Source: Patescibacteria group bacterium | GTDB taxonomy: Bacteria > Patescibacteriota > Microgenomatia > UBA12405 | Assembly (NCBI GenBank): GCA_013387215.1 | Contig: WARW01000022.1 | Location: 92,612-156,611 of the forward strand | Length of the DNA: 64,000 nt | Reading direction: 5' to 3' | Shown here: piece after piece, positions 26,974 through 45,008 of the stretch | Numbering within the stretch: position 1 is the first letter of the stretch | Layout: every line of letters begins with the position of its first letter | Program-made: the position numbers and the translations under genes | Notes under the pieces: model-generated | What the model saw: only the letters and a program-made list of their open reading frames with translations | The model's database searches: none | What the model was told of the DNA's origin: nothing

Positions 26974-27474
26974 ATGAATGCCAATAATGCAGTTCTGATC
27001 GTTTTAATTATCGGGTTGGCAGTTATTGGTGTTTTGATTTTTTCTAAAAGTAACAATACAAATTTGACTAGTTTGAGTTCTCCATCGCCAGAAGTTACTA
27101 CTGTATATGAAGAACCGCCTAGCCCAAGTGAAACTGTTAAATCTCCAATCAACGTCGTATTAAATTCATCAAACAAAAATAATAAGCAGAGTGGGGCAGC
27201 TGTTTTATCTGAAAGTAATGGAAAAGTAACAATTGTAATCAATGCAATTCCAGTTGTTAAAACGAGTTCTCAAACAGTAAGCATAAATAGTGGTGATTGC
27301 TCAAACCTTGGAAAAACCATTTATCAATTAAACAATTTAGTCAAAGGTAAATCGACGACACTTATTGACACGAATCTTCAGGAATTAACCGCAAAAATAC
27401 CTTTAGCAATAAGTATCCATGAACCAAATTCTTCTTCAAATGCATATATAGCCTGTGGCAGCGTTAAGAAATAA
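26974..27474 (+). CDS. membrane-anchored Ser/Thr/Pro-rich extracytoplasmic protein
   Basis: N-terminal TM, then SSPSPEVTTVYEEPPSPSE. The C-terminal domain carries two Cys. Confidence 0.45.
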   Translation: MNANNAVLIVLIIGLAVIGVLIFSKSNNTNLTSLSSPSPEVTTVYEEPPSPSETVKSPINVVLNSSNKNNKQSGAAVLSESNGKVTIVINAIPVVKTSSQTVSINSGDCSNLGKTIYQLNNLVKGKSTTLIDTNLQELTAKIPLAISIHEPNSSSNAYIACGSVKK

Positions 27475-27489
27475 TAACTTTTAAATTTC

Positions 27490-30400
27490 ATGGAAAATAC
27501 AAGCAATAAAATATTTAGAATAAAACCGCGTGATTTTAAGTCGACAATAGGTGCTGGAGTAGTTTTTAAAGAAAAAAGATTTATAACTCATACGTTGCTG
27601 GATGAATCTAAATCAGCAGTAATAACTTTCGCTAGGTGGCAGAAAGTAATTATTCTATTATTTTTATTAAGTTTAATTACTGGCTTAATTTTGTTTCCAC
27701 TAAAAACATTAGGTTTGTTTGTTGGATTTTTAAGTGTAGTTTATTTTATTGATGTACTTTTTAATTTATATGTAATATTTAAAAGTTTATATTTTCCACC
27801 AGAAATTATTGTCAAGGATGAGGATATAAAAAATATAAATGATTTAGAACTCCCAACATATTCTATACTTTGTCCTTTATATAAGGAATCTGAAGTAATC
27901 AAACAATTTTTAACAAATATAAATAATATTGATTGGCCAAAAAATAAACTTGATGTGCTGCTCCTACTTGAAGAGGATGATCTGATTACCCAAGAGGCGG
28001 CAAAAAATATAGATTTACCAAAATATGTTAGGGTAATTATTGTTCCAAATTCATTGCCAAAAACAAAACCAAAAGCTTGTAATTATGGACTACAACTTGC
28101 CAAAGGAAAATATCTAGTTGTTTACGATGCTGAAGACTTACCTGATCCACTTCAACTTAAAAAGGCATATCTAACTTTTCAAAAAGTACCTAAAAACGTT
28201 TACTGCTTACAAGCAAAACTAAATTACTATAATTCATCACAAAATTTGTTGACCCGATTATTTACGGCCGAATATTCCCTTTGGTTTGACGTTGTTTTAC
28301 CAGGATTACAATCGATCAATACCAGCATACCGTTGGGTGGAACCAGTAATCATTTTAGAACTAACGATTTAATTAAACTTCAAGGCTGGGATCCTTTTAA
28401 TGTGACAGAAGATTGCGATTTGGGAATAAGATTGTTCAAAGAAGGATATAAAACGGCAATATTTGATTCTACTACTTTGGAAGAGGCCAACAGTAATGTG
28501 GGAAATTGGATAAGACAAAGATCACGCTGGATAAAAGGATATTTGCAAACCTATTTTGTTCATACCAGAAACCCAATAAGTTTTATAAAAGATTTCAAAT
28601 TTCACGCCTTAATATTTCAATTAATTATCGGTCTTCGTATTTCATTCATTTTAATTAATCCGATTCTTTGGCTGACTACAATCGCCTACTTCGTTTTTTA
28701 TAAATATGTTGGGTCGACTATCGAACTTTTGTATCCTCCTTTTATTTTTTACATTGCCGCCTTCTCACTGTTGATTGGAAATTTTATCTATCTTTACAAT
28801 TATATGATTGGCTGCGCCAAAAAGGAGCAATGGTCAATATTAAAGTTTGTATATCTAGTTCCATTCTATTGGGTATTGATGACTTCAAGTGCTGTTATGG
28901 CCATTCATCAATTAATTTTTAAACCATATTTTTGGGAAAAAACGAACCACGGCTTGAATGTTCAAAAAGAGAAGAGGCCAATCTTTGGACCAGTCTTTGC
29001 AAATTTGGGATTGTTTTTTAAGGATATCCGAGAGGCTGACCTTGTCTTGGTTTTAGCAGCAATTGGGGTTAATTTTTTGAACTTTTTGTATAATGCTTTT
29101 TTGAGTCGAAATGTAAATATAGAAGGTTTTGGTTTAATAAGCTTAATTAGTAACTTTTTTCTTCTAGTTTCCATTCCAATTTATTCACTTTCTGCAACAG
29201 TTGCTAATAAGACTGCATTTTTCTTGGGAAAATATAAAATTTCAATTAAGGATTTTTGGTCTATAACCAGGAAACGTACGATATCAGTTGGATTTGTAGT
29301 AGCAATAATTTGGTTAACACTAATACCTTTTTTGATGCTATTTTTCCAAGCAAACTCCCCTATTCCATTCATATTATTTACCCCTATTTTAATAATTGGA
29401 CTAGTGGGTGCCGTGGATAGTGGTTTTTTAAGTGGTAATTTAAGATTTAAAGATATTGCGTTATTGATTATGATCGAGGCTTTTTTGAAGTTAGTGCTTT
29501 CTATATATATTGTTGAATTGGGTTTCCCTAATTTAGTCTATGCAGCAATTCCAGTTTCTATGATTGTGTCTTTTGTTATGGCATGGATGTTTGCAAGAAA
29601 TATAGTTCCCGAATCTAAAGTGACAAGTGAAAACACAATTTCGTTTCCAGTCGGTTTTTTTTCCACATCTTTTTTAATTAAATTTTCACTTATAGCTTTT
29701 CTAAGTTTTGATGTTCTTTTGGCTAAACACTTTTTGAGTCCCATTGAATCTGGAAAATATGCGTTAATAGCCCTTGCTGGTAAAATGATATTTTTTATTA
29801 GCACTTTATTTAGCCAATTTCTTATTCCTTTAATAAGTAAATCTGAAGGCGCAAATAATAACAGTAATAAGATTTTTGGCAAGATTTTTTTGATCTCTAT
29901 TTTTTCCAGTCTGGTTTTATATATCGGAATTGGTTTATTTGGAAATATTACAGCTCCAATATTATTTGGATCTAACATTAAATCGGTGACGCAATTGTTG
30001 CCTGTATATGGATTAGCAATATTGTGTTTCACAATTTCGAATAATATTGAAACTTTTCAATTAATTAAGAATGACAAAATATTTCCAACCTTAAGTTTTT
30101 TAATAGCAATTTTGCAAATTATTGGCATTTCTATATTTCACAACAGTATTCAAGATATCGTGTTAATCATGACAGTAGTTTCAATATTAAGTATCTTATT
30201 TGTGACTATCATTAGTCTGAATTATCAATATATAAATAGTTCACTTATAAAATTATCCGAAATATTTATTGGCAATAAATATAATGTAAATGAAAATAAT
30301 AAATATCGAATTCTAATTTTCAATTGGTATGACATAAAAAATAAATGGTCTGGGGGTGCTGAAATATACATACATAAAATAGCCAATTATTTAGCTAAAA

Positions 30401-31458
30401 ATAATTGTGAACTTACTTTTTTTTGTGCCGGTGATGGAAGCAGCCTGAGTGAAGAAACTGTTGATGGGATAAAAATTATAAGAAAAGGCAATATGTATAC
30501 CGTTCCTATTTGGGCTTTTATTAATTATATTTTTCGATTTAGAGGCAAGTACGATTTAATAATCGATGTTGCTAAAGGAATTCCCTTTTTCACACCTTTA
30601 TACAGCAGCATTCCAGTTATCGGGGTTATTCATCATATCCATCAAAAAATGTTTTTGAGTGGGCTGCCATTCCCGTTGAATCGAATCGCTATGACTATAG
30701 AAGCCAACTTTTTGCCTGCAATTTATAAAAATACAGATATGATAACCGTTTCAAAATCCTCAAAATCTGCAATGAGCGATATTGGTTTTGATATAAAAAG
30801 AATACGAATTGCTAATCCGGGAGTGAAAATAAAAATTAACAAAAAAATTAATAAATCCACAAAACCAACATTAATTTATTTGGGACGACTTAAGCAATAT
30901 AAACATATTGATAACATTATTATTGCTTTAGCAAAAATTAAAAAATACCATCCAGAAACTAAATTAATTATTGCCGGAACTGGCGATAATGAAGAATATT
31001 TAAGAGAGTTAACTAGAGATTTGAAACTAGAAAAATCTGTTGATTTTATGGGTAAGGTTTCCGAAGAAGATAAGCCAAGCTTACTGGGAAAAGCTTGGAT
31101 AGCAATACAACCTTCTGAGGTTGAAGGTTGGGGCATAACAAATATTGAAGCGAACATGTGCGGTACTCCAGTAATTGCATCAGACGTAGACGGATTAAAA
31201 GATTCTGTAATAGATGGAAAAACTGGAATTTTGGTTCCAGTGAACAACATTAATTCTCTTGCTAAAGCAGTGATTGATCTTATTGAGGATGATGTTTATA
31301 GAACTTATTTAACTAATAACGCAATTAAATGGAGCAAAAGATTTAAATGGCATAAAAGCGGAAAAATATTTATTGATTTGATAAATCAAAAGCTTAAAAA
31401 ACAAAGTGAAGAGTATGGTGTGGTTGAGAATGAAAATTTGGAGGGAGTATATGAATAG
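27490..31458 (+). CDS. 1322-aa fusion: TM-flanked processive GT2 synthase domain, Wzx/MOP-like multi-TM domain (~12 TM), C-terminal GT4 (Glycos_transf_1) domain
   Basis: GT2 motifs D…DAED…TED…QRSRW are all present (aa ~120-350). Residues ~500-900 are almost entirely hydrophobic helices, like a polysaccharide-biosynthesis flippase. The C-terminal EGWGITNIEANMCGTPVIASDVDGLKDSVIDGKTGILV matches GT4. One uninterrupted ORF. Confidence 0.8.
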   Translation: MENTSNKIFRIKPRDFKSTIGAGVVFKEKRFITHTLLDESKSAVITFARWQKVIILLFLLSLITGLILFPLKTLGLFVGFLSVVYFIDVLFNLYVIFKSLYFPPEIIVKDEDIKNINDLELPTYSILCPLYKESEVIKQFLTNINNIDWPKNKLDVLLLLEEDDLITQEAAKNIDLPKYVRVIIVPNSLPKTKPKACNYGLQLAKGKYLVVYDAEDLPDPLQLKKAYLTFQKVPKNVYCLQAKLNYYNSSQNLLTRLFTAEYSLWFDVVLPGLQSINTSIPLGGTSNHFRTNDLIKLQGWDPFNVTEDCDLGIRLFKEGYKTAIFDSTTLEEANSNVGNWIRQRSRWIKGYLQTYFVHTRNPISFIKDFKFHALIFQLIIGLRISFILINPILWLTTIAYFVFYKYVGSTIELLYPPFIFYIAAFSLLIGNFIYLYNYMIGCAKKEQWSILKFVYLVPFYWVLMTSSAVMAIHQLIFKPYFWEKTNHGLNVQKEKRPIFGPVFANLGLFFKDIREADLVLVLAAIGVNFLNFLYNAFLSRNVNIEGFGLISLISNFFLLVSIPIYSLSATVANKTAFFLGKYKISIKDFWSITRKRTISVGFVVAIIWLTLIPFLMLFFQANSPIPFILFTPILIIGLVGAVDSGFLSGNLRFKDIALLIMIEAFLKLVLSIYIVELGFPNLVYAAIPVSMIVSFVMAWMFARNIVPESKVTSENTISFPVGFFSTSFLIKFSLIAFLSFDVLLAKHFLSPIESGKYALIALAGKMIFFISTLFSQFLIPLISKSEGANNNSNKIFGKIFLISIFSSLVLYIGIGLFGNITAPILFGSNIKSVTQLLPVYGLAILCFTISNNIETFQLIKNDKIFPTLSFLIAILQIIGISIFHNSIQDIVLIMTVVSILSILFVTIISLNYQYINSSLIKLSEIFIGNKYNVNENNKYRILIFNWYDIKNKWSGGAEIYIHKIANYLAKNNCELTFFCAGDGSSLSEETVDGIKIIRKGNMYTVPIWAFINYIFRFRGKYDLIIDVAKGIPFFTPLYSSIPVIGVIHHIHQKMFLSGLPFPLNRIAMTIEANFLPAIYKNTDMITVSKSSKSAMSDIGFDIKRIRIANPGVKIKINKKINKSTKPTLIYLGRLKQYKHIDNIIIALAKIKKYHPETKLIIAGTGDNEEYLRELTRDLKLEKSVDFMGKVSEEDKPSLLGKAWIAIQPSEVEGWGITNIEANMCGTPVIASDVDGLKDSVIDGKTGILVPVNNINSLAKAVIDLIEDDVYRTYLTNNAIKWSKRFKWHKSGKIFIDLINQKLKKQSEEYGVVENENLEGVYE

Positions 31459-32374
31459 GACATTGTTAGTAAACATCGGAATTCCCGCATATAACGAAAT
31501 GCAGAACATCGGGAAATTATTAGAATCTCTACAATCTCAAAATTTTCAAGAATTTAAGATAAACAATATATTGGTTGTATCTGATGGCAGCACCGATGAC
31601 ACAGATAGAATCGTAAAAAAATTTAAAAATAAAAAAATAAAATTGATTAGTGATAAAAAAAGAAACGGAGTGGCTATTAGACTTAATCAAATTATAAAGC
31701 TAACCGATACGGATATTTTAGTTATTTTAAATGCCGATATTTTACCTAAAGATTCTAATTTTATTGATCATTTGGTTAAGCCGATAATACATTATAATGC
31801 CGACTTAACATCAGCAGCAATTAGACCCGTTACTCCTACAAAATGGTTTGAAAAAATTGTTGGAGTAGGCGAAAAAATAAAAACTAGTTTTTTTGAAGAT
31901 TATTTAAAGGGTAATAATTTTTATACTTGCAGAGGGACCGCTAGAGCATTTTCTAAAAGATTTTATAAAAAGATTGTGTTTCCAAACAAAATTGGCGACG
32001 ATTCTTATTCGTATTTATATTGTGTGTCTAATAATTATAAATACTTTTTTGCAGACCAGGCGATTATTTATTTTAAATTACCAGATAGTTATAAAGATTT
32101 TAAAAAACAAATAGTTAGGTTTTTAAAAATTAAAGAGAATTTTTCTTTGGTTTTTGGAACGAAACAAATAAATAAAAATTTATATTTTTCAAAATTTAAG
32201 TTTATTAAAAAAACATTTTCTTATTTTTTACACGATATTATGGGGACGGTTCTGTATTCAATGCTTTACACGTATGTACGAATAGACAGTTTATTCGCAA
32301 GAAGCGATAGCTCTGGTGCTTGGGAAACTTCAAAAAGCACTAAATTATTAAACAATTTATATGAAACAAAATAA
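31451..32374 (+). CDS. GT2 family glycosyltransferase
   Basis: NIGIPAYNEMQNI…VVSDGSTDDT. Start ATG at 31451 overlaps the upstream stop (ATGAATAG). GGAGG lies 4 nt upstream. Confidence 0.75.
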   Translation: MNRTLLVNIGIPAYNEMQNIGKLLESLQSQNFQEFKINNILVVSDGSTDDTDRIVKKFKNKKIKLISDKKRNGVAIRLNQIIKLTDTDILVILNADILPKDSNFIDHLVKPIIHYNADLTSAAIRPVTPTKWFEKIVGVGEKIKTSFFEDYLKGNNFYTCRGTARAFSKRFYKKIVFPNKIGDDSYSYLYCVSNNYKYFFADQAIIYFKLPDSYKDFKKQIVRFLKIKENFSLVFGTKQINKNLYFSKFKFIKKTFSYFLHDIMGTVLYSMLYTYVRIDSLFARSDSSGAWETSKSTKLLNNLYETK

Positions 32375-33185
32375 ACAACTTTTTAGATATGAAAATGTTT
32401 TGATACCAATAAGAAAAATTGTATATCTTGTTCTTTGTTTTTATGATCAATATATTTTAAAAAACTATAATAAAACTTTTGTTGTTTGTTATCACAGTAT
32501 TTCCAGTGATGATTGGAGATTTAGCATAAATCCAGAAAATTTTAAAAAACAAATTAATTATTTATCAAAAAATTACCAGTTTATTAATGCAGATCAGCTT
32601 CTTAATTATTTAGAAAACAAAGACAATTTAAGTAAACCATCGATCCTTATATGCTTTGATGATGGTTATAAAGATTTATTATCGATAAAAAACTATTTAT
32701 ATCAGAAAAATATAAAACCATTATTATTTCTAATCTCTAAAACTAAAGGTGTTAACCGAAAGGAATTAAAAAATAGAAAACAACTTTTAAACAAAAATGA
32801 TATAAAAACGCTCATGGATTTTGGTTGGACAATTGGCTCACACGGCCTGACTCATTCTAATTTTTTCAAATTGAATAAGTTGCAAAAAGAATCAGAAATA
32901 ATTATTTCAAAAAAGACTTTAGAAAAAAAATTTAGAGTAGATATTAAATATTTTTCTTTTCCAAAGGGAAATTATTCTATTGAAGATATCGAAATTTTAA
33001 GAAGAGCAGGTTATAAGTTGGCTTTTTCTATGGAAGATAGAATTTTAGTCCAACAAATTAATCCCTATATTATTCCTCGAATCGGAGTCGATAAAACTCA
33101 TAATTTTAATGAATTTAAATCACTTTTTTCACCTTCTGTAATAAAAGTTAGAAATGTTTTTAAAAAATTTTTATCCTATGTCTAA
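32361..33185 (+). CDS. polysaccharide deacetylase (NodB/CE4)
   Basis: ICFDDGYKDL, HGLTHSNF and later His motifs. Confidence 0.75.
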   Translation: MKQNKQLFRYENVLIPIRKIVYLVLCFYDQYILKNYNKTFVVCYHSISSDDWRFSINPENFKKQINYLSKNYQFINADQLLNYLENKDNLSKPSILICFDDGYKDLLSIKNYLYQKNIKPLLFLISKTKGVNRKELKNRKQLLNKNDIKTLMDFGWTIGSHGLTHSNFFKLNKLQKESEIIISKKTLEKKFRVDIKYFSFPKGNYSIEDIEILRRAGYKLAFSMEDRILVQQINPYIIPRIGVDKTHNFNEFKSLFSPSVIKVRNVFKKFLSYV

Positions 33186-33891
33186 TAATTTGATTAATAT
33201 ACTAAATTTAGCCCGATCTAAAACCAGTAGGTTTGTTAAACCTAGAAAAAATTATTTTATTTTTACAAACCCACAAAGAAGTTTGAGGCCAGTGAGCAAA
33301 TTATATGGATTTGACAGAGGGACACCGATCGACAGGTATTATATTGAAAAATTTTTAGAAAATAATAAAGTTTTAATTTATGGGAGATGTTTGGAGATAC
33401 ATGACAATTTTTATACAAAAAAATTTGGAGAGGAAAGGGTTACTGTAAGCGATGTCTTGGATATAAATCCTGATAATTTTCAGGCAAATATTCATGGAGA
33501 TTTGAGAAATTTATCCAATATCGAAAATGAAACCTATGATTGTTTAATAGTTACTCATACCTTGGGAATAATCGATGATTACAATTCGGTAGTGAAAGAA
33601 TGTTATCGAATATTAAAAAAAGGTGGATACCTGCTTTTAACTTCTTCATTTATCGGGCCGCTTTATGACAAAGAAAATACTTTTTGGAAATTTACACCTA
33701 AGTCTTTAGACTATATATTTTCAAAAATATTTTTAAATTCTAAAGCTGAAATTACAACGTATGGGAATGTTTTGGTCTGCCAATGTTTTTTGGCTGGTTT
33801 TTCATTAGAAGAACTTAAACGAGAAGAACTTGAATATAACGATTCTAATTTTCCATTAGTAGTTTGTTTAAAGGTAAGAAAAAGTTTATGA
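33178..33891 (+). CDS. class I SAM-dependent methyltransferase
   Basis: CLEIHD…VLDIN… (motif I-like) and …RILKKGGYLLLT (post-II). ATGTCTAA overlap with the upstream stop. Confidence 0.6.
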   Translation: MSNNLINILNLARSKTSRFVKPRKNYFIFTNPQRSLRPVSKLYGFDRGTPIDRYYIEKFLENNKVLIYGRCLEIHDNFYTKKFGEERVTVSDVLDINPDNFQANIHGDLRNLSNIENETYDCLIVTHTLGIIDDYNSVVKECYRILKKGGYLLLTSSFIGPLYDKENTFWKFTPKSLDYIFSKIFLNSKAEITTYGNVLVCQCFLAGFSLEELKREELEYNDSNFPLVVCLKVRKSL

Positions 33892-35093
33892 AAAACAAAC
33901 ATATTGATGTAATCGTTAAGTATTTTTATCCGGTCGTTGCAGGAATTGAAACAAACATATTGGAAACGTATAGCATTTTAGCTAAAGAAGGGTGGGATAT
34001 TACTATTCATACTTCCAAAGATGTATATATGTGTAAAAATTGCTTAAGCGACAAAGAAAAATATAGAGGATTAAGAATAGTTCGATATAAGTTTTCTTTT
34101 TTTGGTTTTTTTCCCAAAATTGATTGGAGTAATACTAGTTTGGTATGTCTTCACAATTTTGATGTTTTCCCTCATTTTAGAATTCTTATATATAGTTTGT
34201 ATTTGAAAATTTTAGATAAAAAATATTTTGGTCTAATATTAACTCCCCATGGCGGCTTTAATCCAGAATGGTCTATTTATTCAAAAGCAATTGGCTTCAT
34301 AAAAAAGTTGTATCACTTTACATTTGGAGCTATTTTAATAAATTTAGTAGTTGATGGAATCAGGGCGGTTTCAGATTGGGAAAAAGAAGAAATTATTTCT
34401 AAGAATGTAAAAAAAGAATTAGTCGTAGTTATTGATAATGGAATTGAAACTGAGGCATTTTTGAATCTCGAAAAACTGGCTAGCAAGGAAATAAAAAACC
34501 AAGTAAGTATTTTTGGAGATTATATTATTCAAATAGGCAGAATCTATCCGATTAAGAACTATGAAACAACGATAATTGCCTTAAATAGTCTTCCTAAAAA
34601 TCTTAAATATATAATTGTTGGACCCATTAGCGATAAAAAATATTTTGATAATTTAAATATTTTAATAAACAAATTCAATTTAAATGATCGCGTTAAATTT
34701 GTGGGGGTGATAAAAGGAATCGATAAATATTACCTTATCAAACACGCTCAAATGATGGTGCACATGGCTTTATGGGAAAGTTTTTGCAATGTTGTTCATG
34801 AAGGCTTAAGTCAAGGCTTGGTGTGCATAGTGGCCAACAATACCGCTCTACCCTATTTGGTTAAGGATGGAATAAATGGATATTGTGTAGAAACAAAAGA
34901 TTTTAATGAATTGGCAAAAAAAATCAATTTTGTTTTGAAGAACAAAGAAACTCCAATGATAAAAGAAATGGAGGAAATTAACAGAAATTATGGCCGAATT
35001 AATAGCTGGAAAAATGTGGCGAATAAAATGAATTCTTTTTATAAGTACAAACTTAACATGTTTACTAATCATGAAAAACTATGGTCAGTCTAA
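33888..35093 (+). CDS. GT4 family glycosyltransferase
   Basis: Glycos_transf_1 C-terminal block (…SFCNVVHEGLSQGLVCIVANNTALPYLVKDGINGY). ATGA overlap with the methyltransferase stop. Confidence 0.75.
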   Translation: MKNKHIDVIVKYFYPVVAGIETNILETYSILAKEGWDITIHTSKDVYMCKNCLSDKEKYRGLRIVRYKFSFFGFFPKIDWSNTSLVCLHNFDVFPHFRILIYSLYLKILDKKYFGLILTPHGGFNPEWSIYSKAIGFIKKLYHFTFGAILINLVVDGIRAVSDWEKEEIISKNVKKELVVVIDNGIETEAFLNLEKLASKEIKNQVSIFGDYIIQIGRIYPIKNYETTIIALNSLPKNLKYIIVGPISDKKYFDNLNILINKFNLNDRVKFVGVIKGIDKYYLIKHAQMMVHMALWESFCNVVHEGLSQGLVCIVANNTALPYLVKDGINGYCVETKDFNELAKKINFVLKNKETPMIKEMEEINRNYGRINSWKNVANKMNSFYKYKLNMFTNHEKLWSV

Positions 35094-36715
35094 ATTTAAA
35101 GAATAACTGGTTTAATGTTTTATATTATTTAATTTGTATATTAATATTGGTTTTAAGTCTGCGAGGAATTCCGGGGAATCCAAAAGATTTAGAATTAAAT
35201 ACTTCAACTTGGAAAGAAAATGGACCTTTGGAATTATCTACAGACAGAGGAAGATTCGCTTTAACTTATTCTTTATTAGAGAATAAATCTTTTAATTTTT
35301 CTTTAAATATTGCTAAGTTTGCAACTCCAGATTTGGGATATTTCAATGGCAAGTTTGTTTCCTTGTTTGATCCTGGTTTATCATTTTTGGTTATACCAGG
35401 ATATATTATTGGGAAACTATTAGGAGCTGCACAAGTCGGGACTTTTGCCATTATTTCTATCTTTGCGCTTTTAAATGTCTTTCTAATTAGAAAGTTATCA
35501 GAAGAACTTGGAGCTAATAAAATTATGTCTGCGATAGCTGGTTTAGTATTTTTATTTGCAACACCGGCTTTTACTTATAGTGTTACTTTGTATCAACACC
35601 AAATTACAACTTTTATTATTTTGCTGTCTACTTTTCTTTTAATAAAATATGATAATTTTTGGACATTGGCTTTAGTATGGATGCTTCTTGGATTGTCGTT
35701 TGCCATTGATTATCCAAATGCAGTTTTGGTTTTTCCACTAGTAATTTTGGCAATTAAAAAAATATTTTCTATCGATATTCAAAAAAACAGAATTTTATTT
35801 AGATTAAAGAGTTTATACATATTAAGTTTATTAACAGTACTTATACCAATCAGCTTTCTTCTTTGGTTCAATAAAAATTCATACAATAAATATTTTCAAC
35901 TGGCAGGTACGGTTACTCAAGTTACAGGGTTTGATAATAACACTCCTATAAATAATAGATATGTTATTGAAGATGCAACAAAGTATGTAAGCCCAGACAG
36001 AAAAAGCGGTTTTTTGGGAAGCTTTTTTTATACAAGAAATTTGCTTGAAGGATTTTATATTTTATTTTTAAGTCCAGACAGAGGAATTGTGAATTATACG
36101 CCTGTAATTCTTTTGGGATTAGGCGGAATTATTGTGGCTTATAAAAGGAAAATGGAATTACTGCCATTTTTGTTTTCAATAATCGGATTGAATATTCTTT
36201 TGTATGCCATGTGGGGAGACCCTTGGGGCGGATGGGCTTTTGGATCAAGATACTTAATACCTACCTATGCTATTCTTTCTATTTTTATTTCCATATTTTT
36301 AACAAAATATAGAAAATATTTAATCTTGTTGCCAATATTTTTAATTTTGTTTTCTTATTCAGTTTTTGTAAATACTGCCGGTGCTATTACTACTAATGCA
36401 ATACCACCTCAAGTTGAAGTGCTTGATTTGGAAAAAGCTTCCAACAGTATTCAAAAATATACTTATCAAAAAAATTTTGATTATTTGAGCATGAATAAAT
36501 CGAAATCATTTGTTTACCAATTAATCGGCAAAAATTATATGAGTTCCTGGAGATACTTTTATGTTTTGTATACATTAATTATGTCTTTAAGCGTGGGTTT
36601 ATTAGTTGTTCAATATGCAGATAATTTTAAAAAAATATTTTCAAAAATCTCCATTAATGTTTTTCGAAAAACATTACCTCTTAATATTAATTTTTTAAAG
36701 AGAAAATATGACTAA
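35081..36715 (+). CDS. GT-C-fold (PMT/ArnT-like) polytopic membrane glycosyltransferase, putative
   Basis: About 12 TM. Asp/Arg-containing first extracytoplasmic loop (LSTDRGRFALTYSL). Overall topology like GT39/GT83. Confidence 0.55.
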   Translation: MVSLNLKNNWFNVLYYLICILILVLSLRGIPGNPKDLELNTSTWKENGPLELSTDRGRFALTYSLLENKSFNFSLNIAKFATPDLGYFNGKFVSLFDPGLSFLVIPGYIIGKLLGAAQVGTFAIISIFALLNVFLIRKLSEELGANKIMSAIAGLVFLFATPAFTYSVTLYQHQITTFIILLSTFLLIKYDNFWTLALVWMLLGLSFAIDYPNAVLVFPLVILAIKKIFSIDIQKNRILFRLKSLYILSLLTVLIPISFLLWFNKNSYNKYFQLAGTVTQVTGFDNNTPINNRYVIEDATKYVSPDRKSGFLGSFFYTRNLLEGFYILFLSPDRGIVNYTPVILLGLGGIIVAYKRKMELLPFLFSIIGLNILLYAMWGDPWGGWAFGSRYLIPTYAILSIFISIFLTKYRKYLILLPIFLILFSYSVFVNTAGAITTNAIPPQVEVLDLEKASNSIQKYTYQKNFDYLSMNKSKSFVYQLIGKNYMSSWRYFYVLYTLIMSLSVGLLVVQYADNFKKIFSKISINVFRKTLPLNINFLKRKYD

Positions 36716-38306
36716 CTATACATTTTCTATTCCTGTTAATTTTTGGAAAAATACAGGTTTAGTATTAGAAAAAAATTTAAAGTTAATTGTAGGAATAATT
36801 TTGGTAATAATTTCCATTACCGCATTTGTTTATTATTGGAGAAACGGACTAGGAATCGCATATAACGATGCGAGATCACACTTAGATATTGGGCGCCGAG
36901 TTATTGAAGGATTAAAACCTGGGTTAGCTCAACTTGGCTCTGTTTGGTTGCCATTGCTGCATTTCTTGATGATTCCTACAATTTGGAATAATTTTATGTG
37001 GCATTCCGGACTTTCAGGAGCATTGGTTTCGATGATTTCTTTTGTATTTTGCGGACTTTTGATTTATCAATTTCTAGAACAATTAGGGGTTGGAAAAGTT
37101 GGTCGATTAACTGGTGTAATTATTTTTGCAGCTAATCTGAATATATTATATTTGCAATCCACAGCCATGACAGAACTGTTGCTTTTAGCTACGATGACGG
37201 CTGGTTCATATGAATTATTGATTTGGCACAAAACAGGCAATTATTTAAATTTAGTTAAATCAGCGATTTGGATAATGCTTTCCACTTTAACTCGATATGA
37301 TGGGTGGTTTTTATTGTTCTATGCCACTCTTTTAATAATTATTAATGTAGTAAAAAAGAAAAGTTACAAAACAGCAGAAGGCACTTTGATTTTATTTTTG
37401 ACTATGGCCGCTTTAGGGGTGGTTTTGTGGTTTTTGTGGAATTTATTAATCTTTAAAGATCCTTTTTATTTTATTACTGGTCCATTTTCAGCAAAGGCAC
37501 AGCAAGATTTATTGTCTAACGCAGGCGTATTACCAACTAAGGGAAACTTTTTTTTATCCATGAAGGTCTATTTATATGCCTTGATGTATAACACTCAAAC
37601 TTTTCCGTCAATACTTGGATTAATTGGGGCAATTATATTGTGGTTTGATAATAAGATAAACAGATCCATAAAAATGGCATCAACGGTACTTTTAGCACCA
37701 TTATTTTTTAATATAATAGCTTTATATATTGGACACTCGGTTTTATATGTACAAGGGATATCTGGAAACACCTGGTTTAATGTTAGGTATGGAATTATGC
37801 TCCTACCATCAATTGCTATATTTATTGGATACTTAATCGATAAATTAAAACCGTTTAGGGTAGTTTTAATTTCACTTATTTTATTTACTTCATTTTTTTC
37901 AATAGTAAGCGGGGATGCAGTAACAATAGATGATGCAAAATTTGGTTCCAGCCAAAAAAACGTTACTGAAATAAGCGAGTGGCTTAAAGAAAATGTGACT
38001 AACGAAAATAGTTATATTTTAATTTCCGTTGCTTCACACGATGCAATTGTTTTTTCCTCTGGATTACCAATGAAACGTTTTATACATGAAGGGACTGGAG
38101 ACTATTGGAATAAAGCGATAATAAACCCGGATAAATACGCAAAATATATTATTATGAGAACTAATGATGCAACAGATATGACTTTTAGATTGGTCGGCAA
38201 ATCACCTGGATTTAGCCGATATCAAAAAATTTCTAGTTTTCCTTTCGCAGACATATATGAATTAAGACCAGAATATTGGAATAATTTAGCAACAAACACA
38301 AAATGA
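36708..38306 (+). CDS. second GT-C-fold membrane glycosyltransferase, putative
   Basis: About 12 TM. First loop YNDARSHLDIGRRV. Large C-terminal extracytoplasmic domain. ATGACTAA overlap with the upstream stop. Confidence 0.55.
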   Translation: MTNYTFSIPVNFWKNTGLVLEKNLKLIVGIILVIISITAFVYYWRNGLGIAYNDARSHLDIGRRVIEGLKPGLAQLGSVWLPLLHFLMIPTIWNNFMWHSGLSGALVSMISFVFCGLLIYQFLEQLGVGKVGRLTGVIIFAANLNILYLQSTAMTELLLLATMTAGSYELLIWHKTGNYLNLVKSAIWIMLSTLTRYDGWFLLFYATLLIIINVVKKKSYKTAEGTLILFLTMAALGVVLWFLWNLLIFKDPFYFITGPFSAKAQQDLLSNAGVLPTKGNFFLSMKVYLYALMYNTQTFPSILGLIGAIILWFDNKINRSIKMASTVLLAPLFFNIIALYIGHSVLYVQGISGNTWFNVRYGIMLLPSIAIFIGYLIDKLKPFRVVLISLILFTSFFSIVSGDAVTIDDAKFGSSQKNVTEISEWLKENVTNENSYILISVASHDAIVFSSGLPMKRFIHEGTGDYWNKAIINPDKYAKYIIMRTNDATDMTFRLVGKSPGFSRYQKISSFPFADIYELRPEYWNNLATNTK

Positions 38307-39535
38307 TTGCATTAGTTGCCTCGTTTGTGGTTTCGTTATTTTCTTTAAATAATAATTTAACTATTAATGATTCTTGGTGGAAAGTTCAGTCTGTTGACAC
38401 GGTAAAATATTCACGTGATCTGGCTAGAAGTGAAATTTCAAACCCAAATTTGGATTCAATTATTGACGAGCAAGTTAAAGATATTGCTGATATTGGGGCA
38501 AATTATGTTGCTATTGATACTCCATATGATGAAGAGTTTAGGCCCTATTTAATAAAATGGGTTGAAAGTGCAAGAAGACACAATCTTAATGTTTGGTTTC
38601 GAGGTAATTTTTCCGGTTGGGAAAAATGGTTTGATTATCAGTCTATTAGCAGCGAGGATCATTTAAAAATGACGAGTAATTTTATTTTAAACAATCCCGA
38701 TTTGTTTAAAGATGGTGACATTTTTACGGCTTGCCCTGAGTGTGAAAACGGAACAATAGGCGATCCAAGAAGCACTGGTAATTTAGATGAATATCGCTCG
38801 TTTATGATTAATGAATATCAAATAACAAAAAATGATTTTAAAAAAATTAATAAAAAGGTTATTTCAAACTTTAATTCGATGAATGGAGATGTAGCAATGG
38901 CAGTGATGGATAAACCGACAACACAGTCAATGGATGGAATTGTGACAATAGACCATTATGTGGCGGATCCAGAAAAAATAACTGATTATATAAATCTTAT
39001 AAGTGAAAATAGTGGAGGAAAAATTGTTTTAGGTGAATTTGGCGCTCCTATCCCCGATTTAAACGGTAATCTGGATGAAGATCAACAATCTATATGGATT
39101 AATGAAGCCTTAAATAAAATAGCTCAGTCAAATAATATTATTGGAATAAATTATTGGACTAACATAAATTCAACTACCCAACTATGGAATAATAATGGTA
39201 TCCCTAGAAAGGCCGTTAGTATCGTGAAAAATTATTATTCACCTCAAATATTAAGAGGGTCTATTAAAAATGAGATCGGACAAGCAGTTAGAAATGCCGA
39301 TGTGTATATTGCCAATAAGTCAACAAAATCTGATAATAATGGATATTTTTCAATACCATATATAAACCACAATACTAACGTAAATATTTATAGTCCCGAT
39401 TATATGCATCAGATAATATCTATTGATGATTTCAAAAAAAACGGAAAAGCAATTTTAATTAAATATCCAGAAGACTTTTGGTTTAGAGCGGAGAAATTAT
39501 TTTATTCTATATATACCAGCCGCTTCCGGAGGTAA
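38303..39535 (+). CDS. clan-A glycoside-hydrolase-like protein (paralogue of the 24793-26715 catalytic domain) with C-terminal CarboxypepD_reg-like domain
   Basis: Shares NYVAIDTPYD, GDIFTACPECENG, IDHY and LGEFGAP blocks with the PA14 protein. C-terminal GSIKNEIGQAVRNADVYIANKSTKSDNNGYFSI. ATGA overlap. Confidence 0.65.
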   Translation: MIALVASFVVSLFSLNNNLTINDSWWKVQSVDTVKYSRDLARSEISNPNLDSIIDEQVKDIADIGANYVAIDTPYDEEFRPYLIKWVESARRHNLNVWFRGNFSGWEKWFDYQSISSEDHLKMTSNFILNNPDLFKDGDIFTACPECENGTIGDPRSTGNLDEYRSFMINEYQITKNDFKKINKKVISNFNSMNGDVAMAVMDKPTTQSMDGIVTIDHYVADPEKITDYINLISENSGGKIVLGEFGAPIPDLNGNLDEDQQSIWINEALNKIAQSNNIIGINYWTNINSTTQLWNNNGIPRKAVSIVKNYYSPQILRGSIKNEIGQAVRNADVYIANKSTKSDNNGYFSIPYINHNTNVNIYSPDYMHQIISIDDFKKNGKAILIKYPEDFWFRAEKLFYSIYTSRFRR

Positions 39536-40303
39536 CATGCTGGCAATTTTAGGCATAATAAAACGAGTCGGCATAAAATCGTTATGAGTATAAATTTCTT
39601 TGGCTGTAACTATTGTTTTTTGAGATGGAACACAAAGACTTCGAGTGGAAGGATCAAAGAGTCTGTATGAACCATCAATAGAAACCGGCAAAACACAAAA
39701 TTTGGTTTTATCTTTTAAAAATCTTGTTACAATTCCGTCAAAAGAATTATCCTCTTTTACCTCTACCATGCCATTAATTATTCCATTTTCATTAATTCTT
39801 CCGCCTTTTAGAGTGCCTTCCGGTAAAAATATTATTCCGAAATTATCTTTGTGGGCTGATATTAATTTTTTAAGATTATCTGAGTTTTTATCTTCTATTC
39901 CATATCTTTTTATGTCTTCTTCTCGTGTGACAGGTATCAAATTAACACCTCTTTGCTGACATACCGGTGTCAGTTTTTCTACTAAATACCTGACTTCTTC
40001 ACCCTGATCACCTGAACAAATTGAACTAGCTATCGGTAAATAAAAACCGTTAAAACCATCAACTTTTATTTTGCTTGTAATCATGGAAATAGCGAGTCCG
40101 TCAGCGTGACTTTGATGATTACTTACTATAAGAGGCATGTAGCCTTCTTTAATTAAGGTGGAAAAATCGGAAATTAACTGTTGATTACAATTCAACTCGA
40201 AGTTATTAAAAATATTGCCCAATTCAGAGACTGATCTTTTCTCTGGTACTTGAGCCATTAATGTACCTTCATTCTTATTTGTGATTATAAGTTTTTCTGA
40301 CAT
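39497..40303 (-). CDS. 1-acyl-sn-glycerol-3-phosphate acyltransferase-like (PlsC family)
   Basis: HxxxxD motif (NHQSHADG) and downstream EGT/PEGT block (FLPEGTLKGG). Confidence 0.7.
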   Translation of the reverse strand: MSEKLIITNKNEGTLMAQVPEKRSVSELGNIFNNFELNCNQQLISDFSTLIKEGYMPLIVSNHQSHADGLAISMITSKIKVDGFNGFYLPIASSICSGDQGEEVRYLVEKLTPVCQQRGVNLIPVTREEDIKRYGIEDKNSDNLKKLISAHKDNFGIIFLPEGTLKGGRINENGIINGMVEVKEDNSFDGIVTRFLKDKTKFCVLPVSIDGSYRLFDPSTRSLCVPSQKTIVTAKEIYTHNDFMPTRFIMPKIASMLPPEAAGIYRIK

Positions 40304-41630: not shown

Positions 41631-43055
41631 TTATTCTAAGCTTTCAACATTAACACCGTACCCCCAATCAATTTCTGGATAAGAGTGGAGAAGTTTATTG
41701 ATATAAACTTTTAGCTGATCATAACCAGATTGGTTGTTGGATTCGAATTTTATTGTTAAATAAGGTCCATTTTGAGAATATCTGACAACAAACATTCCGT
41801 CCACTAAATTTAGTCTGACACCATCACCTGCTCGGCGCTCATCTGAAATAATTTCTGCTTGAGGATAATCTTTTTTCAAAACTTCACTAATTTTATCCAT
41901 CAAAGAAACTTTTTTATCATCGGCACAGCCAACTTTAATTTCCGGACTGGAAATATATTGTGGTAATGAAGCTACAGCCTGAGACAATGTTTGATTGGTT
42001 CGACCAAGATAATCTAACAATCGAACGGTGGAATAAAATCCATCATCATGATTATAAAAATCAGCAGAAAAGAAAAAGTGGCCTGATAATTCGCCTGCAA
42101 ATGCACCGCCTGCTTCTTTATTATATTTTTTAACGAAAGAATGTCCGGTTCTAACCATGTTTGGTTTGCCGCCGTTTCGAGTAATAGTTTCTTCAACCAA
42201 TTTAGAACATAAAGTGTTGAAGGTAATAACAGAACCCGGATGATATGCCAAAACATCAGCTGACATTAGAGCAACTAAAACATCGTTCCAAATAATGCCA
42301 CCCTTTTCATCAATAATTCCAATGCGATCACCATCGGCATCATAAGTAAAACCAACTGCAGCACCTGATTCAATTACTTCTTGAGCAATTCTTTTAGCAA
42401 CTACAGATTCGGTTGGATCTGGAGTTCCAAGCGGGAAAGTTGGATCAATATTGCAATTTTTTTCGACAACCTCAAAACCTGCGCCTCTTAATGCGTTTGG
42501 AACAATTGCACCAGCAGTGGCACAATTAGCATCAATTAAAACCTTTATAGGTTTTAAATTAGTAAAACGTTTAAGAATATCTGCAAAATAGGCAGAATTT
42601 ACATCTTGAATAGTGCTGTTTCCAACCTTATCACCTTGTGAATAATTTTCATTTAAAACTAAATTTTTGATTTCTTGAATTCCTTCGCTGACTAATGTTT
42701 CAGAAAAATCAGAAGCTAGTTTCATGCCGTTATATTCACCCGGGTTGTGAGAAGCAGTAATAAAGGCTCCGCCTTTTCGGTTTAAAAAATATTGTGCCCA
42801 ATAAAAAGTTCCAACCATAGTGAGACCAATATTTACAACATCAATACCTGTCCAAGTTAAACCTTTAATAAAAGCTTCACTATATTCTTTACTGGTGGCT
42901 CGGCAATCATACCCAACTATAGCTTCAGTGATGCCTCGATTCTTTAAAAAAGTTCCATGTGCCCGGCCAATGTGTTCATAAAGTTCTGGAGATAAATCTT
43001 GACCCACTATTCCTCTAATATCATAACCACGAAAAATACTTTGATTTACTTGCAT
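41631..43055 (-). CDS. phosphoglucomutase/phosphomannomutase
   Basis: Active-site Ser loop (ITASHNPGEYNGMK), Mg-binding (DADGDR) and a sugar-binding loop. Confidence 0.85.
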   Translation of the reverse strand: MQVNQSIFRGYDIRGIVGQDLSPELYEHIGRAHGTFLKNRGITEAIVGYDCRATSKEYSEAFIKGLTWTGIDVVNIGLTMVGTFYWAQYFLNRKGGAFITASHNPGEYNGMKLASDFSETLVSEGIQEIKNLVLNENYSQGDKVGNSTIQDVNSAYFADILKRFTNLKPIKVLIDANCATAGAIVPNALRGAGFEVVEKNCNIDPTFPLGTPDPTESVVAKRIAQEVIESGAAVGFTYDADGDRIGIIDEKGGIIWNDVLVALMSADVLAYHPGSVITFNTLCSKLVEETITRNGGKPNMVRTGHSFVKKYNKEAGGAFAGELSGHFFFSADFYNHDDGFYSTVRLLDYLGRTNQTLSQAVASLPQYISSPEIKVGCADDKKVSLMDKISEVLKKDYPQAEIISDERRAGDGVRLNLVDGMFVVRYSQNGPYLTIKFESNNQSGYDQLKVYINKLLHSYPEIDWGYGVNVESLE

Positions 43056-43103: not shown

Positions 43104-45008
43104 TTATACAACCGATTCCAGATTACACCGTTGAAAAACAAAAAGATTATTTTCAGGCGGAAAAGCCATATTAATATAATCCTCAACCATCCGAGCGCCA
43201 CTAACGATATTAAGAAGACCTCCTTTCCAAAGTGTTTTAACTTCATCAAAATGTTTTTCTGGATCTTGCGAGACTTTTATTGAGTGTTCTAATTGAGAAT
43301 AATAATTTTCAAATTCTTCTGCAGAGTTAGTATTACCTTCAATAGCATAGTAAGAGGTTTTTGGAAGTTCGGCGTAGAAACCATCCACAGTAGAAACCTG
43401 GAGAGCACCACCAAAACCTGTTTTCATGCCAGAAGTGGCACATGCTTCTTCCCCTACCCTAGGCGTATTTGTCCAAACATGACAAGCAGGTCCAAGTTTT
43501 TTGGCAAGCTCTGTGTCCCAATCAGGTAGATAATGGATTTGGTTTCTAAAAACGTCATTTTCAGCGATGGATTTTAAAACAAACGACAACTGATCTTTAG
43601 CAATACCGTCGGCTGGATGAGCCTTACCACTAATAAAAATATGGACATTAGGATTGCTGGTTAAAATATTCTGTAAACGATCTGGATATTTAAATATCAT
43701 CCACCTTCTTTTATAATCTGCCACACGACGAGCGTCTCCAATAATTACGGCATTATCCAGAAGTTGAACAATATTCCCGAATTGATCCAAACGTTTCCCT
43801 TCCAATAGATATTCACGAAGATCTGCAACTGCTTTTGATTTTAAATTATGAAATTCTTTTGGGTTTATTTTATCTATATTTTCTTCAAAACTAGTTAAAT
43901 TTGGAATTCCAAACTTATCAATTACTTGATGTTTTTCTAGGAATTTAAACATTTCTGGATTCCAACCTTTTTGATAGATACCATTGGTAACTGAATCAAA
44001 ATTAGTTTTAATTCCATAATAAATATCTCCGTAACATTGCCTGAAAATTCTTGTTGCTTCGTCTGAATGGAATTGGCTGACACCATTGCATTTTTCAGAC
44101 ATATATTTTGCTAAATCAAGAAACTTAAGCATTCCGCCGCGCTGATTAATAAATGTTTCCAATTGTATTTTTGCTTCGCTGCTTTGCAAATTGTTAAAAA
44201 TTAAATTGCATTGCCCCCGATTAAAACTGGCTTCAGCTGCTGGAACTAAAGTGTGGTTAGTAAGAATTGTTTTACCTCTTAATTCTGCAAGTGCCTTTAG
44301 GTATGCATCGTAGTTATTACCATATATTTGAGTTTTGTAGTCTAAAAATGATAGAGCGCTTAAAACGGTAGCTGATTCATTCAAATGAATAACTGATGGT
44401 TCTTCAATTAATCCTTTTTCTTGGAGTTGTTGAATTACCTGAAAACCACCCATACCCATTACAACGTTATTCCAAAGACGTTCATCGCTGTTCGGTTCTT
44501 TAGGGTAAACTTCTCCAGATACCTTTAGTAATAATAGTTTTGTAGAATCGGTACTTAGGCCATATTGATAAACTTCAGGACTTTGCACTTGGTTATTAAA
44601 ATCTTTTATGCAAACATTTACTTGGTCAAATCTCTCCATTCCAATTTCTTGAGGTGATGGCAACTGTTTTTCTTCATCGTACTGATAATAATTACTGTTT
44701 TCACATCGAATAATTTGTTGTTCTTTGCGAGAACTATATGCTAATCCTAAGAAATACCCGGGTAAACCAATGTCGGCTGCTTGTAAAAAATGGTCGCGAG
44801 AAAGCATTCCTAAACCACCATTGGCACCTAAACCAGGACAACCATATTCAGCTGAAAAATAAACATACGGATTCTTTTTGTTAATTTGTTCCGAAAGATC
44901 GGTTCTATCGATAGTCTCTAAAAATTCAGGCCATTTTCTTGAAATCGGATTGATTTCACACCCTAAACTATTAATCTGCTCTCTAACTGACAGATATTTT
45001 TCTTTCAT
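43104..45008 (-). CDS. alpha-glucan (glycogen/maltodextrin) phosphorylase, GT35, short archaeal-type
   Basis: GANGGLGMLSRDHF (GGLG motif). PLP-Lys region (ATSGMKTGFGGALQVSTVDGF). Confidence 0.75.
   Translation of the reverse strand: MKEKYLSVREQINSLGCEINPISRKWPEFLETIDRTDLSEQINKKNPYVYFSAEYGCPGLGANGGLGMLSRDHFLQAADIGLPGYFLGLAYSSRKEQQIIRCENSNYYQYDEEKQLPSPQEIGMERFDQVNVCIKDFNNQVQSPEVYQYGLSTDSTKLLLLKVSGEVYPKEPNSDERLWNNVVMGMGGFQVIQQLQEKGLIEEPSVIHLNESATVLSALSFLDYKTQIYGNNYDAYLKALAELRGKTILTNHTLVPAAEASFNRGQCNLIFNNLQSSEAKIQLETFINQRGGMLKFLDLAKYMSEKCNGVSQFHSDEATRIFRQCYGDIYYGIKTNFDSVTNGIYQKGWNPEMFKFLEKHQVIDKFGIPNLTSFEENIDKINPKEFHNLKSKAVADLREYLLEGKRLDQFGNIVQLLDNAVIIGDARRVADYKRRWMIFKYPDRLQNILTSNPNVHIFISGKAHPADGIAKDQLSFVLKSIAENDVFRNQIHYLPDWDTELAKKLGPACHVWTNTPRVGEEACATSGMKTGFGGALQVSTVDGFYAELPKTSYYAIEGNTNSAEEFENYYSQLEHSIKVSQDPEKHFDEVKTLWKGGLLNIVSGARMVEDYINMAFPPENNLFVFQRCNLESVV

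Follow-up and report, generated by a model that had tools for sequence, protein, structure and literature searches.

Two adjacent membrane proteins, here called A and B, are encoded in a 64,000-nucleotide stretch of a Patescibacteria group bacterium (GTDB lineage Patescibacteriota, Microgenomatia; contig WARW01000022.1, positions 92,612 to 156,611 of the forward strand). The whole stretch is referred to as the window; its G+C content is about 32%. A and B are probably transferases of the outer membrane face that take lipid-linked sugars and with them build or decorate a β-glycan of the cell surface, made by an operon that is conserved across the Microgenomates. A first-pass annotation of the window had read the pair as a possible PMT-type module for the O-glycosylation of Ser/Thr/Pro-rich secreted proteins encoded nearby. 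The glycosyltransferase fold that it proposed is borne out, while the PMT identity and the proposed acceptor proteins are not.

The two open reading frames (ORFs), of 544 and 532 codons, lie exactly where the first-pass annotation had placed them (Table 1), and they overlap by 8 nt. A has 1020 homologs and B has 2158 in a collection of 5.8 billion proteins, and a single scan across the GTDB species representatives turned up 410 loci with a relative of B; A and B are therefore real genes and not chance ORFs. The homologs listed are unnamed or annotated as 'hypothetical', and none has a precomputed Pfam domain. Where a lineage is given, it is Patescibacteria in nearly every case (Levy-, Davies-, Beckwithbacteria and similar), with the proviso that organism labels are unreliable for many of the metagenome bins among the relatives.

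AlphaFold2 models, each calculated from a 50-sequence alignment, were obtained for A (pLDDT 91.1, pTM 0.91) and B (pLDDT 79.6, pTM 0.79; its loops are moderately confident at most). Both models show the GT-C fold, the multi-pass membrane fold common to ArnT, PglB, PMT and the ALG enzymes. About 12 transmembrane (TM) helices had been claimed for each protein; counted from the predicted helices, this is right for A, and B has about 13. The C-terminus of B forms a conserved α/β domain of approximately 130 residues, which would be extramembrane on the outer side if the N-terminus is cytoplasmic. The structural matches of B include AglB (22.4), ALG12 (22.3), Pmt4 (21.7), STT3B (20.6) and ArnT (20.5), and those of the pair also include PimE, AftB and Emb enzymes. 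Foldseek ranked STT3 first for B (E = 8e-7), PMT entries far lower (E = 6e-3 or worse), and WaaL as non-significant. The best matches of A and B are neither O-antigen ligases or polymerases of the WaaL/Wzy type nor proteins of a non-GT-C fold. The models thus make the GT-C assignment sound; they do not pick out a single GT-C family, PMT least of all.

The first outer loop of both proteins had been singled out for its charged residues. The motifs quoted are present, STDRGRF at residues 53-59 of A and YNDARSHLDIGRR at residues 52-64 of B, and an acidic residue is conserved in both families. It is the invariant D54 in B and the nearly invariant E/D55 in A, where the window protein has Asp and the family consensus Glu. 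D54 of B and residue 55 of A start the first helix after TM1 (H54-66 in B, H53-68 in A) and, judged by position, would be the counterparts of the catalytic Asp of ArnT and PglB. In the B family alignment (mean column identity 64%) R56, H58, R63, R64 and E156 are also invariant, as are many further positions in the C-terminal domain. The A family (mean identity 49%) conserves the block W-G-D-P-W-G-G-W-A-F-G-S-R-Y along with E/D55, R56, G57 and D84. When the profiles of A and B were compared, only a local match with a probability of 1.8% emerged; it falls on a conserved outer loop with the motif G[DN]xW...RY and suggests that the two are very distant paralogs at best.

No Pfam family was matched by A, B or any of 50 A homologs, and searches of PDB chains with A and B, as single sequences and as profiles, returned nothing useful. 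Three of 50 close B homologs match PMT_2 (PF13231) weakly (best E = 3e-4); the window B itself and A give no match to it. More distant relatives of B, recognized by the B profile at E = 1e-85 or better, exceed the PMT_2 gathering score of 26.1 (P0250, 30.3 bits; P0294, 34.9 bits), and B can for this reason be considered a divergent ArnT/PMT_2-type GT-C by transitive homology. Against the NCBIfam model NF047440 (LA_3751/LA_3752 putative glycosyltransferases) A scores 43.3 bits and B 24.6 bits, where the curated cutoff is 200; both are related to these proteins without being members. The STT3 Pfam model matches neither A nor B, and the motif WWDYG, or even WWD, does not occur in the B sequence; the likeness of B to STT3, AglB and PglB is at the level of the fold only. 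Literature searches on CPR (Candidate Phyla Radiation) or Microgenomates GT-C enzymes and on LA_3751 found nothing, and a 2026 preprint on CPR pili has no bearing on glycosylation. The A and B families thus have no Pfam model and no literature that we could find.

A and B occupy positions six and seven in an operon of eight co-directional genes (27490-39535), in which the start and stop codons of neighbors overlap from the stop of gene 1 onward; the start of gene eight, which encodes protein C, overlaps the B stop by 4 nt. Gene 1 encodes a 1322-residue fusion with Pfam matches to Glyco_trans_2_3, Glyco_tranf_2_3 and Glycos_transf_1. It matches the NCBIfam model PgaC_IcaA with E = 1.2e-16 (residues 83-478, model positions 4-393 of 407), and its translation contains KPKACNYG, YDAED, GGTSNHFR, VTEDCDLG and QRSRW, motifs of the D, DxD, TED, QxxRW type. 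Hydropathy places five TM segments in this synthase domain. Processive-GT2 motifs, TM helices and a dedicated hydrolase, the features of synthase-dependent polysaccharide systems, are therefore all present in the operon, and processivity is predicted. The central block of gene 1 has about 11 TM helices and is assigned as a MOP/Wzx-type flippase domain because orthologous blocks match Polysacc_synt_3 (8e-12), Polysacc_synt and MatE; PDB profile searches with this block and with C gave no significant match. The invariant residues of C include E146, E148, N149 and G244-E245 (motif GEFG). Glyco_hydro_cc matches 7 of 36 C members weakly, and the C domain of the B-C fusion P0251 exceeds the cutoff of that model (26.2 versus 21 bits).

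Gene order was compared in 81 loci, a non-redundant set for which flanks of up to 10 kb were taken on either side of B. A is directly upstream of B in all 74 loci with enough flank. C is downstream of B in 69 of 73 loci when distances up to about 3.3 kb are allowed, and in 55 of the 73 it lies no more than 500 nt away. The block upstream of A is variable: it has zero to five small GT2 genes, a CE4 gene in 27 of 61 loci and a methyltransferase gene in 9 of 61, together with GT4s, RmlA- and RmlC-like proteins, 4,6-dehydratases, aminotransferases, acetyltransferases and PIG-L proteins. The synthase-MOP-GT4 protein usually precedes this block, at the 5' end of the operon. The layout appears to be that of a surface-glycan locus in which conserved machinery is combined with species-specific sugar chemistry. 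The census of the operons revealed no recurrent WecA/WbaP-type initiating transferase, no Wzy/WaaL-type protein and no other recurrent outer-face transferase, which leaves A and B as the sole conserved candidates for the steps after export.

The nearest relative of the window (L001), a metagenome contig of 1.1 Mb, shares its gene order. Identity to its orthologs is 71% for B and 76% for the GT2 synthase domain, compared with 71.5% for ribosomal protein S4, 78% for ArgRS and 44% for the small GT2. B and the synthase domain are thus as conserved as S4 and ArgRS, and their conservation, set against the variability of the small GT2, fits a conserved acceptor that carries a variable glycan.

Natural gene fusions connect A and B to the other components. 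A is fused to cytoplasmic domains in four species, as GT2-CE4-A, as GT2-GT4-A, or as CE4-A with an unassigned N-terminal region: a GT2 lies upstream of A in L009 and L026, CE4 occurs in L009, L068 and L074, and in L026 a GT4 stands between GT2 and A. These domains are considered cytoplasmic because no TM segment precedes TM1 of A. The CE4 protein of the operon is probably cytoplasmic as well; the candidate role of an outer-face PgaB-like enzyme was rejected, since in the fusions CE4 is N-terminal to TM1 of A with no earlier TM segment. For B, an exhaustive profile search of 1.84 billion representatives yielded 857 proteins at E = 1e-30 or better, and fusions were counted among the best 150 of these 857, with partner domains confirmed with Pfam. 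Ten are fusions of a processive GT2 with B, including one synthase-B-GH113 protein. Fusions of B with hydrolases sum to 17: 12 with GH5, four with C (P0251, P0263, P0292 and P0379) and one with GH113, the last being counted within the ten processive-GT2 fusions as well. Three carry an N-terminal GtrB-like GT2 with the DxDxQ signature, one of them also a GtrA domain, and one is an A-B fusion. Fusion proteins from Saccharimonadales and Ktedonobacteraceae show that the B family reaches beyond the Microgenomates into other CPR classes and the Chloroflexota. That B is joined to a β-glycan-type synthase, to hydrolases of clan GH-A and to a module for lipid-phosphate sugars suggests that it acts on a polysaccharide and draws its sugar from a lipid monophosphate. 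As far as our searches show, the direct fusion of a synthase with a GT-C enzyme has no described precedent in the literature.

These features suggest the following pathway. The GT2 synthase domain of gene 1, of the processive cellulose/PNAG (poly-N-acetylglucosamine) type and joined there to the MOP flippase and GT4 domains, would make and export a β-linked backbone. The species-variable cytoplasmic enzymes (GT2s, GT4, CE4, methyltransferase and enzymes of nucleotide-sugar metabolism) would assemble variable lipid-linked sugars or oligosaccharides, which the MOP domain would flip. A and B, probably in a complex with C, would then take sugars from lipid-phosphate carriers and with them branch or extend the glycan on a polysaccharide, or attach glycan to it, the polysaccharide being most probably the β-glycan from the GT2 synthase, and the membrane-anchored GH-A hydrolase C may trim or release the polymer. 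Fold, conservation, operon structure and fusions are what the analysis shows; the donor, the acceptor and the division of labor between A and B are what we infer here, and these functional statements draw on structure prediction, profile matches, synteny and fusions.

Several observations weigh against this reading, and its weakest link is the donor. The synthase for the donor was not found in the 64-kb window, which has no GtrA- or GtrB-like gene, and the GT2s of the operons mostly do not have DxDxQ, the signature of polyprenyl-phosphate GT2s (PMC10821137); it occurs in 3 of 140 of them. The first-pass annotation had proposed the GT2 at 31451-32374 as the lipid-sugar synthase. This role is not confirmed, for NADIL stands in place of DxDxQ. 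The PDB matches of this protein are generic (DPMS 1e-3, GtrB 6e-3), hydropathy finds no TM segment, and a C-terminal TM pair is absent, so its candidacy as a polyprenyl-phosphate sugar synthase was rejected as unproven for this window. A lipid-linked donor as such, also part of the earlier proposal, is plausible because some relatives of B (P0322, P0328 and P0294) carry in the same chain modules of the GtrA/GtrB type, which synthesize polyprenyl-phosphate sugars; no DPM1/Ppm1-type GT2 with DxDxQ was found in the window. Of the three components, GT-C enzymes, flippase and GtrB-type GT2, the window has the first and, as the MOP domain, the second.

Other points concern acceptor and export. The acceptor is deduced from gene fusion and gene neighborhood alone. 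The top Foldseek match of the B model, STT3, is a protein-glycosylating enzyme. In 39 of 62 loci genes for a sortase substrate and a sortase come after the operon, so a protein acceptor is possible. The identification of C as a hydrolase, which is probable, comes from weak profile matches and conserved Glu residues. Finally, the first operon protein of L001 (L001:4610-7453, 947 aa) consists of the GT2 synthase and GT4 without the MOP block, and the 10 kb around it are free of MOP genes; operons of this type can thus be without the flippase domain, and the export route is not uniform.

The sortase substrate, protein D, is a protein of about 200 aa encoded after C in other loci (L003:12609-13268), with equivalents in 48 loci, e.g. 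L005:13063-13635 and L015:13847-14776. It is composed of a signal peptide, a four-Cys domain of about 110 aa (FPSC...QCFC...IQTNWWK...WGL), a linker rich in Gly, Ser, Asn, Thr and Pro that sometimes has an FN3 domain, the sorting signal LGLA[ST]TGN, a TM segment and a basic tail. The four-Cys domain has no Pfam match in the three members scanned. One or two sortase genes follow D, and D and sortase are each present in 39 of the 62 loci with enough flank. In the 64-kb window neither D nor an LPXTG- or LAxTG-type sorting signal was found, nor were GtrA-, GtrB- or GH5-like genes; the sole sortase-like gene there is 25 kb from the operon.

Among the alternatives, one in which the operon modifies a protein as an oligosaccharyltransferase does fares best, and we consider it unlikely. 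A lipid-linked oligosaccharide would be built by the variable glycosyltransferases, flipped by the MOP domain and moved en bloc by B or A to a surface protein, mostly D. In its combination of variable glycosyltransferases, a methyltransferase, a MOP flippase and two GT-Cs the operon parallels the Haloferax Agl pathway, and the top match of the operon GT4 is Agl16. The presence of D and sortase behind the operon and the structural proximity of B to AglB and STT3 agree with this alternative. A sortase substrate that carries a glycopolymer is already known in Actinomyces GspA, which is modified with the participation of LcpA and SrtA (PMC6381275). Neither the STT3 Pfam model nor WWDYG is found in B, however, and the GtrA/GtrB modules fused to B make monosaccharide donors rather than diphosphate-linked oligosaccharides. 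The fusions of B to the processive synthase, GH5, GH113 and C indicate a polysaccharide substrate, D and sortase are absent from the operon end in the window and in L001, and an initiating phosphoglycosyl transferase is not recurrent in the operons. A more specific version, to which we give little credence, has the operon glycan attached to D by A or B and the glycoprotein then fixed to peptidoglycan by the sortase. If true, it would be a CPR-specific, GT-C-dependent way to anchor a wall glycopolymer via a protein, analogous to LcpA/GspA/SrtA of Actinomyces and using unrelated enzymes.

Quite improbable in our view is a lipid or lipoglycan acceptor, in which A and B would glycosylate or elongate a membrane glycolipid whose lipid anchor is primed by the GT4, as ArnT acts on lipid A and PimE, MptA and Emb on mycobacterial lipomannan and lipoarabinomannan. 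In its favor, the structural matches include ArnT, PimE, AftB and Emb enzymes, the operon has conserved GT4 domains, and the GT2-CE4-A fusions mirror the order ArnC-ArnD-ArnT of the Arn pathway. The operon content gives no sign of a specific lipid anchor, though, and the conserved processive synthase and its hydrolase partners fit a free or wall-bound polymer better. To our knowledge, CPR bacteria are Gram-positive-like and have no lipid A.

The remaining alternative is that of the first-pass annotation, in which A and B transfer mannose from polyprenyl-phosphate-mannose to the Thr/Pro and Ser/Pro linkers of secreted proteins encoded upstream. The stretches that it quoted are found in a 640-aa ORF and a 166-aa ORF located at most 9 kb upstream of the pair. 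The 640-aa protein has a PA14 domain (Pfam, E = 2e-18), and over its last 286 aa it shares 28% identity with protein C (E = 6e-24). From the layout, which is domain, linker, PA14, linker and C paralog, the Thr/Pro runs are seen to be ordinary linkers between the domains of a secreted carbohydrate-active protein. The window thus encodes two copies of the putative hydrolase domain of C, one membrane-anchored in the operon and one secreted with PA14 and an N-terminal domain. The 166-aa protein, directly upstream of the operon, matches no Pfam family, and a homolog adjoins the operon only in the closest relative (L001/L002). Linker-bearing secreted proteins are thus present as claimed, but a PA14-type or 166-aa-type neighbor was found in 1 of 61 related loci, that of the nearest relative, whereas the linkage of A, B and C is almost universal. 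A and B are not specifically linked to Ser/Thr/Pro-rich neighbors, and fusions and synteny point to a polysaccharide acceptor instead.

The enzymes themselves agree with this. Even with E values of up to 1 allowed, neither A and B nor 100 members of their families match PF02366 (PMT), PF16192 (PMT_4TMC) or MIR, a domain that eukaryotic PMTs have in the lumenal loop, and Foldseek prefers STT3 over PMT for B. In place of the Asp-Glu (DE) motif of PMT, loop 1 has T-D-R in A (family consensus P-E-R) and N-D-A in B. The conserved acidic residue in the first outer loop and the PMT_2 matches of distant B relatives speak for PMT-like enzymes; with the PMT domains missing from both families, no DPM1/Ppm1-type GT2 with DxDxQ found in the window, linkers that lie between the domains of a PA14 and GH-like enzyme, and fusion partners of B that are glycan synthases and hydrolases, O-mannosylation by A and B is very improbable. 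PMT-type protein O-mannosylation in CPR bacteria would have been a tempting claim, and the present result removes it as unsupported.

The reading of A and B as transferases of a surface β-glycan bears on the cell envelope of CPR/Patescibacteria, which is essentially uncharacterized. These organisms live attached to host cells, and their surface glycans are therefore likely to matter for this lifestyle. At least 410 species representatives have the operon, and core proteins about as conserved as ribosomal protein S4 suggest an important envelope polymer; two of these core enzymes come from GT-C families with neither a Pfam model nor literature found. Synthase-dependent export and outer-face GT-C glycosylation would here be combined in one pathway, outside the textbook routes of polysaccharide assembly.

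Some further genes of the window were noted. The GT4 of the operon (33864-35093) has as its top NCBIfam match the archaeal N-glycosylation protein Agl16 (E = 1e-50, near full length, 173 bits versus a cutoff of 575), with the runner-up family far behind (1e-19). A phosphoglucomutase/phosphomannomutase gene (41631-43055, minus strand) and a glycogen-phosphorylase-like gene (43104-45008, minus strand) are located just downstream of the operon; the former adjoins the operon in L001 too and could be the source of hexose-1-phosphate for nucleotide sugars. A 268-aa ORF (39497-40303, minus strand) is convergent with the operon end and overlaps the 3' end of the C gene by 39 nt. It has a weak acyltransferase (PlsC-type) match (E = 5e-3), and L001 has a histidine phosphatase gene at this place. 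Two antisense ORFs inside the 1322-aa gene (29538-30032, 164 aa, and 30876-31250, 124 aa, both minus strand) are most likely non-coding by-products of the AT-rich sequence.

Table 1. Features of the window and fusion proteins of the A and B families. Coordinates are positions in the window.
Feature	Coordinates	Strand	Description
Sortase-like gene	1836-2540	+	Pfam Sortase, E = 8.6e-16; the only one in the window
Secreted 640-aa protein	24793-26715	-	Signal peptide, N-terminal domain, TPTNTPTPTP linker, PA14, PIPTVTPTIAPTP linker, C paralog
Membrane-anchored 166-aa protein	26974-27474	+	Ser/Pro-rich segment SSPSPEVTTVYEEPPSPSE
Gene 1, 1322-aa fusion	27490-31458	+	Processive-type GT2 synthase with TM segments (~1-490), MOP/Wzx-type flippase (~490-945), GT4 (~945-1322), predicted
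Small GT2	31451-32374	+	307 aa; Pfam Glycos_transf_2, E = 5e-23; variable set, 0-5 copies per operon
CE4 polysaccharide-deacetylase-family protein	32361-33185	+	274 aa; Pfam Polysacc_deac_1, E = 2e-16; variable component
S-adenosylmethionine-dependent methyltransferase	33154-33891	+	245 aa; Pfam Methyltransf_11, E = 6e-9; variable component
GT4 glycosyltransferase	33864-35093	+	409 aa; Pfam Glycos_transf_1, E = 3.5e-26; variable component
Protein A	35081-36715	+	544 aa; GT-C-fold membrane glycosyltransferase, ~12 TM helices; unannotated family without Pfam model
Protein B	36708-38306	+	532 aa; GT-C-fold membrane glycosyltransferase, ~13 TM helices; divergent relative of the PMT_2/ArnT-like group
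Protein C	38303-39535	+	410 aa; N-terminal membrane anchor, probable clan GH-A glycoside hydrolase domain, CarboxypepD_reg β-sandwich
P0242			A-B fusion
P0250			B-GH5 fusion
P0251			B-C fusion
P0294			GtrB-like GT2, processive GT2 and B fusion
P0322			GtrA-GtrB-B fusion; Saccharimonadales
P0328			GtrB-B fusion
P0338			Processive GT2, B and GH113 fusion; Ktedonobacteraceae

A and B were also compared with characterized systems. The PMT/GT39 enzymes, including bacterial Pmt with Ppm1, resemble A and B in their GT-C fold, in having an acidic residue within outer loop 1 and probably in using a lipid-phosphate sugar donor; unlike them, A and B have no PMT, PMT_4TMC or MIR domain and no DE motif, a Ppm1-type GT2 was not found in the window, and no linkage to Ser/Thr-rich substrates is conserved. 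From STT3, AglB, PglB and the archaeal Agl systems they differ in the absence of an STT3 match and of WWDYG, and in fusions that indicate monosaccharide donors and a polysaccharide substrate.

The Bcs cellulose and Pga PNAG systems resemble the operon in having a membrane-embedded processive GT2 (D, DxD, TED, QxxRW) with a dedicated glycoside hydrolase partner, but known synthase systems have no GT-C enzymes and no fused MOP flippase and GT4. In GtrA/GtrB/GtrC, CsbB/GtcA/YfhO and GacI/J/K/L, an outer-face GT-C modifies a glycopolymer with a sugar carried on polyprenyl phosphate, made by a GT2 and then flipped (PMC8035078, PMC10821137). Relatives of B occur as single-chain GtrA-GtrB-B and GtrB-B proteins, and the window has a GacK-like Wzx/MOP flippase as a domain. 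Unlike in the Gtr, Csb and Gac systems, no DxDxQ GtrB-type GT2 and no GtrA were found in the window, and A and B are highly conserved core genes rather than serotype-specific accessories, forming an obligatory pair that comes with a GH-A hydrolase and a processive synthase.

The nearest functional analogs would be the multi-component transmembrane glycosylation systems of Gram-positive walls, especially that for the lactococcal polysaccharide pellicle (PSP), and ArnC-ArnD-ArnT. The last differs in that these organisms have no lipid A, the operon is one of polysaccharide synthesis, and A and B show no significant PF13231/ArnT match. In the Lactococcus PSP system (WpsA-J), strain-variable cytoplasmic glycosyltransferases build a lipid-carried oligosaccharide, a Wzx-type flippase is present, and GT-C-fold enzymes at the outer face are proposed to polymerize the repeat units and to transfer them onto a conserved polymer (WpsJ) (PMC10821137). 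Variable cytoplasmic glycosyltransferases, a Wzx-type flippase, outer-face GT-Cs and a conserved acceptor polymer would all be shared. The polymer, though, would come from a processive GT2 synthase here and is an ABC-exported rhamnan there, and an initiating GT2 is not recognizable in the operon; no sequence relationship of WpsH, WpsI or WpsJ to A or B came up, no direct comparison having been made. What appears to be new is that a CPR operon of very wide distribution, for an envelope glycan, has at its core two GT-C families that nobody seems to have studied, together with an architecture of synthase and GT-C enzymes for which we found no earlier description.

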